Below, piece after piece: positions 2,360 to 3,412 of a stretch of DNA of 26,287 bases; the first letter of the stretch is position 1; the number at the start of each line of letters is the position of its first letter. The DNA is taken from IMG/VR virus record IMGVR_UViG_2531839144_000012, positions 1 through 26,287 of that record. One strand, 5' to 3'. A program made the position numbers and the translations under genes. This DNA is from a virus. Lineage: Duplodnaviria; Heunggongvirae; Uroviricota; Caudoviricetes. Below the pieces are notes generated by a model. It saw only the letters and a list, made by a program, of their open reading frames with translations, made no database searches and was not told the DNA's origin.

Positions 2360-2393
2360 TCGTAGCACGTTCTTGCATACGACGTGGCTACGG
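2360..2393 (+). promoter_or_regulatory. Hairpin H1: 5-bp + bulge + 5-bp stem with 11-nt loop TCTTGCATACG
   Basis: CGTAGCACGT / ACGTGGCTACG pairing seen directly; homologous to hairpin at 3381-3412 with compensatory stem substitutions. Confidence 0.45.
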
Positions 2394-2583
2394 GTTTCGA
2401 GACCGACCCGATCATCAAACGAAACATAAAATTAGCTCACATTATGAGGAAAGGTATCTTTTGCGCTATGTAAATTCAAAGGGTTAGCCTCATTTTCCCG
2501 ATGGTTTTCTCAACACTACTAGTTGTGAGCCCTTGCAATGTTCATTAATATACGTCTCACAAATAATTCACAGATATTGCAAA

Positions 2584-3357
2584 ATGGATATTACTGAGTT
2601 TCCTTCTGGAGTAATTGAACACCTTGGCTGGTATGTATACCGATTGATTGATCCTAGGGACGGAAGCACCTTCTATGTAGGGAAAGGCAAAGGTAACCGC
2701 GTATTTGCCCATATGCGCGGTGAAGTGGCAGCGGCTGATGATGACGAGTTACTGAGCAACAAGCTAAAGCAAATCAGAGAAATAAGATTAGCGGGACTTG
2801 AAGTTATCCATGTCATCCATCGACATGGAATGACTGATGAAAAGACGGCGTACGAAGTTGAAGCAGCACTTATTGATGCCTACCCTGGGTTAACGAATAT
2901 CATGAATGGTGCTGGCAGCAATGAATTCGGCGCCGCGCATGTCAAAGAATTGATAGCAACATATCAACCCGAAACCATAACATTTCATCATAAAGCATTA
3001 ATGATTTCCGTTAACAGAAGTGCAAAGGATTCAGAGCTTTATGATGCGGTTCGATTTAGCTGGCGCATCAATGCCTCGCGCGCCAGTCAAGCAGAAGTCA
3101 TTCTTGCCACTGTAAGGGGCATCGTTCGAGGGGTTTTTATTGCTGATAAATGGCTCAAATCAACACGTGAAAATTTCCCTACGATGAAATACTGGGACGA
3201 GGATCCTGACTTTGAGGCAACACAAAGTTCTCGCTATGGTTTTGAAGGTCGAGAAGCCCCACCTGAAATAGCAAATCTTTATCTTGGGAAAAAAATACCA
3301 GATGAATTAAGAAAAAAAGGAGCTATGTCCCCGGTCCGTTACTCACCTAATTTTTGA
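2584..3357 (+). CDS. GIY-YIG-like nuclease-superfamily protein (function unknown)
   Basis: N-terminal [29 protein letters not shown] fits the GIY-(10-11 aa)-YIG spacing with following Arg and His; ORF track start at 2533 is an alternative; followed 25 nt downstream by hairpin H2. Confidence 0.55.
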
Positions 3358-3380
3358 GTATTCAATTGATAAGATTAAAC

Positions 3381-3412
3381 CGCAGCACGTTATTGCATAC
3401 AACGTGTCTGCG
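3381..3412 (+). terminator. Hairpin H2 (CGCAGCACGT-TATTGCATACA-ACGTGTCTGCG) followed by TTTT; candidate terminator for the GIY-YIG-like gene
   Basis: Stem-loop and downstream T-run seen directly; same architecture and loop motif as H1. Confidence 0.45.

Follow-up and report, generated by a model that had tools for sequence, protein, structure and literature searches.

The DNA analysed here, referred to as the window, is a stretch of 26,287 nucleotides (nt) from a phage of the class Caudoviricetes (IMG/VR record IMGVR_UViG_2531839144_000012). It holds a nuclease gene bracketed by two similar hairpins, hairpin 1 on the upstream and hairpin 2 on the downstream side, and hairpin 1 closes a conserved non-coding trailer that we call the E element (E; Table 1). 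The open reading frame (ORF) of the nuclease starts 190 nt past hairpin 1 and ends 23 nt ahead of hairpin 2. An earlier note, made from the sequence alone, had pointed out the pair of hairpins and proposed that the unit might be a mobile or regulated nuclease cassette. Both hairpins are copies of one conserved stem-loop family in lambdoid and e14/SfV-like temperate phages of the Enterobacterales. Other loci that carry the family are referred to below by L numbers.

Table 1. Features of the window around the two hairpins (aa, amino acids).
Feature	Position	Strand	Remarks
Upstream module (GGCACATAGCAG...GGAGGTAAAAATCCTCTCATGC)	2215–2290	+	Common to lambda (≈24,266–24,350, leftward strand) and ≈22 loci; stem-loop like a tRNA T-arm
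E element, conserved non-coding trailer (GCAAAATCGATAACAGTTGGAAATCATTCAATACTCGCACTATCGGAAGTTCACCAGCCAG)	2297–2359	+	In lambda, HK97, Stx phages and Qin; may form the long-range stem SL1 (GTTGG...CCAGC)
Hairpin 1	2360–2393	+	(T)CGTAG-CACGT-TCTTGCATACG-ACGTG-G-CTACG(G); outer stem TCGTAG/CTACGG, bulge G; ends the E element; covariance model 63.2 bits
5' region of the nuclease cassette	2394–2583	+	Kept together with the gene in every PD-T4-3 locus
Nuclease ORF, 257 aa	2584–3357 (ATG 2584, stop 3355–3357)	+	PADLOC PD-T4-3, Pfam LEM-3_GIY-YIG, PDB 9U75
Hairpin 2 and short U-tract	3380–3418 (hairpin proper 3380–3413)	+	(C)CGCAG-CACGT-TATTGCATACA-ACGTG-T-CTGCG(T), then TTTCA; 3' hairpin of the nuclease cassette; covariance model 61.6 bits
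Right flank common to empty-site prophages	3413–3504	+	3378–3504 against L051, L060 and L119 at 73–75%; 3378–3444 against L075 at 85%; directly after the sole hairpin
Acyl_transf_3 family membrane protein, 355 aa	3905–4972	+	E=2.3e-24; next cargo gene after hairpin 2

Judged by its sequence, the ORF encodes CMoRE/PD-T4-3. This type IV restriction endonuclease, a defence enzyme, has been characterised before, and crystal structures of it exist. It matches the PADLOC profile of the single-gene system PD-T4-3 (PDLC04031) over its full length (residues 1–256 against profile positions 1–255 of 256, E=3.3e-140), and it aligns end to end with chain 9u75_A of PDB entry 9U75 (residues 1–257, E=3.7e-172) with 5 visible substitutions and ≈98% identity. 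The identity to the O157:H7 protein is likewise ≈98%. The GIYxY-YIG motif is present in the N-terminal domain (G15-W-Y17-V-Y19...F-Y31-V-G), where the protein also matches Pfam LEM-3_GIY-YIG (E=2.4e-14), and by the end-to-end alignment with 9u75_A the C-terminal modification-sensing domain is present as well. A PHROG search gave phrog_5356 at 1e-142 and a marginal match to 'homing endonuclease' (E=0.0022). The marginal nature of this match, the identity as a modification-dependent restriction enzyme and the imprecise cassette junctions described below together rule out a free-standing GIY-YIG homing endonuclease cassette, the mobile-endonuclease reading of the earlier note.

According to published work on CMoRE, the enzyme degrades the 5-hydroxymethylcytosine (5hmC) and 5-glucosylhydroxymethylcytosine (5ghmC) DNA of T-even phages. 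Its nuclease domain, of the GIYxY-YIG type, is N-terminal and its sensing domain C-terminal, an acidic loop is autoinhibitory, and the constructs used relied on the native promoter (PMC12923530). The enzyme has also been described as active in a native clinical host (bioRxiv 2024.12.20.629700). With its ≈98% identity to the assayed O157:H7 enzyme, the window enzyme would be expected to cleave 5hmC/5ghmC T-even phage DNA and to protect the lysogen. The 190 nt between hairpin 1 and the gene presumably represent the promoter and leader of the nuclease gene; a simple promoter scan found no sigma-70 consensus site upstream of the gene.

The two hairpins are the top-ranked direct repeat of the region in a repeat search (32 nt, 84% identity, spacing 1020 nt), and the core hairpin pattern has exactly two matches in the 26-kb window and none in 100 shuffles. 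Folded as + strand RNA, hairpin 1 has a free energy of −17.4 kcal/mol (z −2.5 against shuffles) and hairpin 2 of −14.3 kcal/mol (z −3.5). All parts of the architecture that had been described from the sequence are found in both, namely the inner CACGT/ACGTG stem, one bulged base, an outer stem of 5 bp (6 bp with the terminal pair counted) and an 11-nt loop. The paired change between the outer stems was also confirmed, with T-A in hairpin 1 and C-G in hairpin 2. The single bulge holds for the two window hairpins but not for the family, in which its identity varies (G, T, A or C) and 13 of 33 variants lack it.

Directly after hairpin 2 lies a poly-C tract (≈3424–3432, +), ≈470 nt upstream of the acyltransferase gene. 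It has 5 C in the window, 8 in L001 and 9–11 in L046 and L092, the loci being otherwise near-identical. This length variation could be slippage noise or a phase-variable tract.

The hairpin family is very widespread. A 91-nt query around hairpin 1 matched 4,975 of 5,426 complete Escherichia coli genomes, at a median of 2 places per genome and a maximum of 10, and a query for hairpin 2 matched 4,410 E. coli genomes. O157 genomes have 6–7 copies each. The hairpin was also found in 192 phage records, including lambda, HK97, HK106, mEp460 and many Stx phages, and in genomes of Citrobacter, Kluyvera, Pantoea and Shigella. The copies flank differing cargo, such as ea47 in lambda and a methyltransferase in L129. 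The possibility raised in the earlier note that the hairpins are two unrelated terminators without recurrence is contradicted by a family spread over E. coli, lambda and other genera.

The K-12 copies of E. coli are found in two cryptic prophages, Qin and Rac, at their outer ends. The Qin copy has the disrupted ydfJ on one side and ynfT-ydfK-pinQ on the other, and the Rac copy (1,434,731–764, minus strand) lies between ttcC/uspF and ynaM-ynaE-pinR. In HK97, int is followed by the core of attP and by sib as annotated, then immediately by ≈100 nt of conserved sequence with the hairpin at its end, and after that by a convergent tfa. In mEp460 the order is int, dinI, E with the hairpin and a convergent tail-fibre gene. 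Lambda has two copies. For the first, the element occupies 24,162–24,265 on the leftward strand between ea31 and ea47, with the hairpin at ≈24,155–24,199 (L123 5656–5700, −). The second, found by the hairpin covariance model, is at 22,566–22,610 (L123 4067–4111, −) between the convergent stops of ea47 and orf-194 (tfa). Lambda ea47 is therefore bracketed by two hairpin copies, the same arrangement as that of the nuclease in the window. Neither NC_001416 nor J02459 annotates a hairpin at either lambda copy.

Two candidate functions tied to phage integration and inversion were rejected. The hairpin does not behave as an attP arm, being found with at least five different integrases and 3.5 kb from attP in lambda. 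A pin/gin invertase crossover site does not fit either, the linkage to invertases being inconsistent and no resemblance to the published site sequences being known.

The first set of hairpins was chosen by a loop/inner-stem pattern, and invariance in these parts of that set is artefactual. The family was therefore resampled with an anchor inside E, upstream of the hairpin, using one genome per species together with IMG/VR, and the 99 hits (86 distinct) were aligned to a covariance model. RNAalifold on a MAFFT alignment of E and the hairpin had given a poor consensus because bulge indels misalign the 3' arm, and it was replaced by the covariance-model alignment and an explicit test of SL1.

Among the 86 distinct copies, 93.9% of the cells are paired against 87.5% in shuffles, none of 500 shuffles reaches the observed score, and double-sided changes occur at 9 of the 11 stem pairs (63 cells). 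When the partner is slid by 1–3 columns the pairing falls to 19–46%. This strong, family-wide covariation bears out the selection on structure that had been suspected from the window hairpins. The stems are largely rewritten in copies from Citrobacter, Kluyvera and Pantoea, for example GCAGCCTGTG/CACAGGCTGC and CCGCAATCATGC/GTGTGGTTGCGG, and in the second lambda copy one C-G pair of the inner stem is replaced by A-T, a compensatory double change. The loop TCTTGCATACG is conserved at 80–99% per column in this set, which was not selected on the hairpin, and equals or exceeds the stems in conservation. There are 61 G.T wobbles against 27 A.C mismatches, which indicates that the folding strand is the + strand, the one with the sense of int, ea47 and the nuclease.

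Most commonly the hairpin forms the end of E, a conserved non-coding trailer of ≈100 nt, after dinI, int/sib or another attP-proximal module, and the strand of E and the hairpin is the one transcribed from int towards the tail-fibre genes. The 5' boundary of E is sharp, at GTAAAATC (window ≈2297), in an alignment of ≈46 unique loci and across at least six upstream contexts. The at least six unrelated modules found upstream include the 3' end of dinI, sib/tI, a 60-nt hairpin element, a Qin-type sequence and the upstream module that the window shares with lambda. The long-range stem SL1 within E (GGCTGG...CCAGCC) is 85% paired and shows modest, largely clade-level covariation (GC 16 vs AU 8 at one pair), and the invariance of its loop was forced by the search anchor. 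A simple scan found no consensus promoter in E. No Rfam family matched E in focused scans, in which the sole match was the terminal hairpin of CssrB, below threshold; an Rfam scan of window positions 1–6000 at E≤1 gave no match. In many E. coli genomes RefSeq annotates a 'capsid protein' pseudogene fragment of 81 nt that spans E and hairpin 1 (L001 6055–6135, −, equal to window ≈2294–2374). Since this fragment falls within conserved non-coding DNA and on the opposite strand, it is probably spurious.

Homology of the window with strain CFSAN064035 and with lambda starts at ≈2202–2215, and to the left of the upstream module the sequence differs in every locus. The module contains a stem-loop (GGAGG-TAAAAAT-CCTCT), of which the form in L097, GGAGGTTCAAATCCTCT, resembles a tRNA T-arm. 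A tRNA remnant is nevertheless not supported: ARAGORN found no tRNA in the window or in eight loci, and Rfam gave no tRNA match in L097, the best-looking copy.

Beyond the hairpin, up to the convergent tail-fibre genes, the DNA is hypervariable accessory cargo, and further bare hairpins stand directly after the stop codons of single cargo genes. The contexts of 156 E-anchored copies fall into 16 clusters upstream, with a dinI-like 3' end in 86 of the 156, and into 46 clusters downstream. The hairpin is thus the last conserved element before the hypervariable region. Directly after the hairpin, other loci have cargo such as restriction enzymes (one type IV and methyl-directed, another EcoRII-like and accompanied by Dcm), ipaH, acyltransferases, a GGDEF protein and lambda Ea47. 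The acyltransferase of the window resembles phage O-antigen acetyltransferases, and similar genes follow hairpins in L135 and L207. Near the hairpin element, Rfam 'IS009' matches above threshold were seen inside remnants of tail-fibre-assembly (tfa) genes; the IS009 family may be a fragment of a protein-coding gene.

A search with the stretch 2240–3480, which holds E, hairpin 1, the gene and hairpin 2, matched 799 E. coli genomes at ≥80% coverage. The homology of the PD-T4-3 cassette stops at window position 3418 in five other prophage contexts (L014, L047, L049, L060 and L083). Comparison of related prophages with and without the gene, as the earlier note had suggested, revealed empty sites in L051, L075 and L119. 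There the left flank (2195/2203–2396) is followed by a single hairpin and then by the sequence found after hairpin 2 in the window (3413–3504), and the nuclease gene is missing. The 1020-nt unit of one hairpin and the gene is thus an insertion/deletion polymorphism. In this weak sense the cassette idea of the earlier note is supported, although its mobile-endonuclease and nuclease-specific parts are not. Bracketing is also seen for other cargo, as in L129, where a S-adenosylmethionine-dependent (SAM) methyltransferase is enclosed and the 3' hairpin begins 3 nt past the stop codon, and for units of 0.7 kb in L063 and 1.6 kb in L079 and L235.

In locus L060 (9000–13400, −), one E with its hairpin is followed by an EcoRII-like restriction enzyme, a Dcm-type methylase, PD-T4-3 and then a pin invertase, a stack that amounts to a small defence island in a prophage accessory region. 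The nuclease cassette lies 3 kb further in, behind the restriction enzyme and the methylase, and is preceded by just the 3' half of hairpin 1. As L060 retains no more than this half, hairpin 1 is dispensable for the nuclease gene.

These observations bear on the idea that the hairpins are cis-regulators of the GIY-YIG nuclease in particular, such as an operator, or an RNA switch by which a toxic nuclease would be restrained. The outer-stem variant TCGTAG/CTACGG of hairpin 1 does go with the PD-T4-3 cassette in L001, L014, L047, L049, L056, L083 and L092, and the loop TATTGCATACA of hairpin 2 is linked to it as well. Yet the same hairpins stand beside unrelated genes in lambda, where ea47 is an example, and in dozens of prophages, as a generic element of lambdoid prophages would, and L060 keeps PD-T4-3 with half of hairpin 1. 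In addition, the autoinhibition of CMoRE resides in a loop of its own protein chain (PMC12923530). Nothing points to regulation of the nuclease by the hairpins, as the earlier note had envisaged, and we find such a role scarcely credible.

The cassette junctions are informative about how exchange might occur. The 5' homology breakpoints vary among the copies, some lying within E, others at the base of the stem and others within the loop, and chimeric hairpins are found, such as L086, where CCGCAG is paired with CTACGG. We therefore argue for homologous or illegitimate recombination at the common sequence and not for precise site-specific recombination. An alternative is that the hairpin is a site of recombination in single-stranded DNA, comparable to the attC of integrons or the ends of IS200/IS605 elements, at which a dedicated recombinase would move cassettes precisely. 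The polymorphism between hairpin-cargo-hairpin and a single hairpin would fit this, as would the extrahelical base in many copies, the structure kept while the stem sequence varies, and the strand bias of the wobble pairs, which suits single-stranded DNA as well as RNA. But the imprecise 5' breakpoints largely refute such a site, the bulge is variable or absent, and the loop is conserved whereas attC loops are variable. Moreover, neither hairpin has R''/R' GTTRRRY core sites, ORFs and annotations nearby include no integron-type integrase or HUH transposase, and serine invertases (pin) are nearby just in some cases and in either orientation. We consider this alternative very improbable.

In our preferred reading, to which we give a probability of ≈0.55, the hairpin acts much like a terminator and thereby keeps the accessory cassettes insulated, and together with E it would also supply homology for cassette exchange. 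The hairpin would fold in the sense (+ strand) RNA and make or stabilise transcript 3' ends in the manner of an intrinsic terminator. Transcription of each cassette would then be shielded from that of its neighbours and from read-through that starts in int/dinI or in host DNA. The hairpin and E would further give short homology through which cassettes could be gained, lost or swapped by RecA or Red-type homologous recombination; we ascribe this role to them because the hairpin is the only sequence common to otherwise unrelated cargo. Exchange of this kind would leave hairpin-gene-hairpin at an occupied site and a single hairpin at an empty one.

Several features are consistent with a terminator-like element. 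The stems have 10–11 bp and −13 to −17 kcal/mol, in keeping with the G+C-rich stem of an intrinsic terminator. Hairpin 2 lies 23 nt past the stop codon and is followed by TTTTCA (TTTTCAAC), and at least three T are found in the 6 bases after the stem in 53 of 82 copies. In lambda and HK97 copies lie between convergent genes. That the small RNA CssrB ends in the complement of the hairpin (see below) suggests that the hairpin can work in both directions.

Other features weigh against this preferred reading. The loop is kept at 80–99% even where the stems are rewritten, and a plain terminator has no need of a conserved loop; with 9–11 nt it is also longer than the short loop (≈3–8 nt) of an intrinsic terminator. 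Neither hairpin was called by a simple consensus terminator scan. A U-tract is absent in 29 of the 82 copies, including the upstream copy of lambda (GGCTCTACC) and the whole Citrobacter-type clade (GGCAACTAT), and hairpin 1 has no more than GGTTTCG after it (GGTTTCGAG). Of less weight is that the K-12 Term-seq tables list no RNA 3' end at the Rac copy, a site that little transcription may enter. As for exchange, homologous recombination is suggested by breakpoints and chimeric hairpins, and in the window itself the arms of both hairpins are self-consistent, with no crossover visible within either.

The same Term-seq data contain two 'orphan' RNA 3' ends at 1,434,540 and 1,434,552 of K-12 (NC_000913.3, minus strand), ≈180–190 nt downstream of the Rac hairpin and upstream of ynaM (PMC7815308, supplementary file 1). 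They suggest an unannotated short transcript in the Rac/Qin-specific cargo.

The conserved loop leads to another explanation, in which E and the hairpin (≈100 nt, two stem-loops with conserved loops) are a functional structured RNA, that is, a small RNA (sRNA), either independent or derived from a 3' untranslated region (3'-UTR), or a binding site for a reader of the TCTTGCATACG loop. Such an RNA could have a role beyond termination, for example in control of mRNA decay, in antitermination-resistant stopping or in host regulation. In the unbiased sample conservation is higher in the loop than in the stems, and the loop contains CUUG, which fits the YUNR motif of antisense-RNA recognition loops. 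The hairpin stems covary, with modest covariation in SL1 too; the 5' boundary of E is sharp at a TAnnnT-like hexamer (GTAAAAT, TACAAT or TAGAAT); the commonest place is directly past the dinI stop codon, as is typical of 3'-UTR sRNAs; and many copies do without a U-tract. On the other hand, E matched no Rfam family and held no consensus promoter in the simple scan, and the invariance of the SL1 loop was imposed by the search anchor. Hairpin-only copies without E are common (hairpin 2, Rac and the second lambda copy), no expression data were found, and the prophage sRNAs that were checked appear to lie elsewhere, PasB between tail genes I and J, svsR in cI and HnrS, as described, within prophage late genes. 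We regard a structured RNA of this kind as rather unlikely.

A bolder proposal is that E and the hairpin are an undescribed structured-RNA family with two stem-loops, present in lambda and in nearly every E. coli genome, whose 11-nt loop, conserved across genera while its stem covaries, is read by a specific protein or RNA partner and which organises the defence and virulence hotspot as cassette boundary and exchange linker. We put this forward tentatively, as possible but doubtful.

Two further observations concern the surroundings of the accessory region. A second direct repeat of 60 nt (616–675 and 5128–5186, +, 90% identical) brackets the whole region from a GNAT acetyltransferase to the acyltransferase, and within it AAGCCTTGCAA...TTGCGAGGCCTT forms a hairpin that resembles a terminator and has a T-rich tail behind it. 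Relatives of this repeat lie directly upstream of E in Stx phage 1717, L014, L037, L072 and L099, in the Stx phage after an apparent integrase 3' end, and the repeat may represent a second punctuation or tI-like family. At the left end of the window, a 46-nt segment at 484–530 (−), which we take to be the 3' end of tRNA-Thr (thrW), stops within the anticodon loop, and ARAGORN did not detect a complete tRNA there. It adjoins a 112-aa N-terminal fragment of a P4-type integrase (1–339, −). This arrangement looks like an att junction between the prophage and a thrW island remnant, with the prophage end near 530.

Taken together, the hairpins form a punctuation element that is real, under selection and very widespread, and not a nuclease-specific device. 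The nuclease is nothing new, but its context may be useful: one recognisable hairpin, usually after a conserved trailer of ≈100 nt, stands where the variable accessory region of lambdoid prophages begins and recurs at cassette ends. This is the region of restriction enzymes, PD-T4-3, ipaH effectors and O-antigen-modifying acyltransferases, for which the hairpin offers a simple sequence landmark of prophage-borne defence and virulence cargo, and the preferred reading provides a concrete, testable model for cargo insulation and swapping. Lambda itself has the conserved structured element in its b region, at 24.2 and 22.6 kb, unannotated in both of its records. That such a conserved structured element occurs twice in lambda is mildly surprising. 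We did not find homologous bounding hairpins across unrelated cargo and genera described before. The loop and E sequence strings were not found in the literature searched, and an earlier description is possible, since subscription-era lambda papers on b-region transcripts fell outside that search.

Compared with known systems, the window agrees with the CMoRE/PD-T4-3 literature in the protein family, with no material difference, and the flanking hairpins go unmentioned in the published passages. The element resembles lambda sib/tI in strand and neighbourhood, both lying downstream of int across attP, and in HK97 sib (21,042–21,091) is a separate hairpin immediately upstream of E that ends exactly where E begins. 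It differs in being another hairpin with another sequence (sib has GCGCAAGG...CTTGCGC) and in its place, as lambda sib lies at ≈27.5 kb. A stem of 11 bp is also too short for a classical RNase III site.

Rfam family RF02799, CssrB (chromosome-encoded Shigella sRNA B), is alike in that the last ≈37 positions of its model are the reverse complement of the hairpin. The window matches positions 144–180 of the 180-nt model on the minus strand with 20.8 bits, against a gathering score of 76. Unlike CssrB, the window has just the terminal hairpin in common with the model, on the opposite strand, while the body of CssrB is one particular downstream cargo that is absent from the window. In L129 the full CssrB ends in the second hairpin copy. 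CssrB lies antisense, adjoins a second hairpin copy and is located upstream of an ipaH-like gene; this observation and that on the IS009 matches concern L129 (2551–2730, −, and 1591–1794, −) and also L141, L143 and L153.

With integron attC sites the hairpins share an imperfect fold with an extrahelical base after gene cassettes and a structure more conserved than the stem sequence. In contrast to attC, they have no core sites (RYYYAAC/GTTRRRY) and no IntI, the bulge is unconserved, conservation is highest in the loop and the junctions lack precision. The likeness to the morons of Hendrix, Juhala and colleagues, reportedly independently transcribed accessory genes with their own promoter and terminator located between the tail-fibre genes and attP (the lambda b region), lies in the same location, in accessory defence or virulence genes with a hairpin directly after the gene, and in a presence that varies among related phages. 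What sets the hairpins described here apart from the classical description of morons is that they are homologous across unrelated cargo and genera, with stems that covary and a loop that is conserved.

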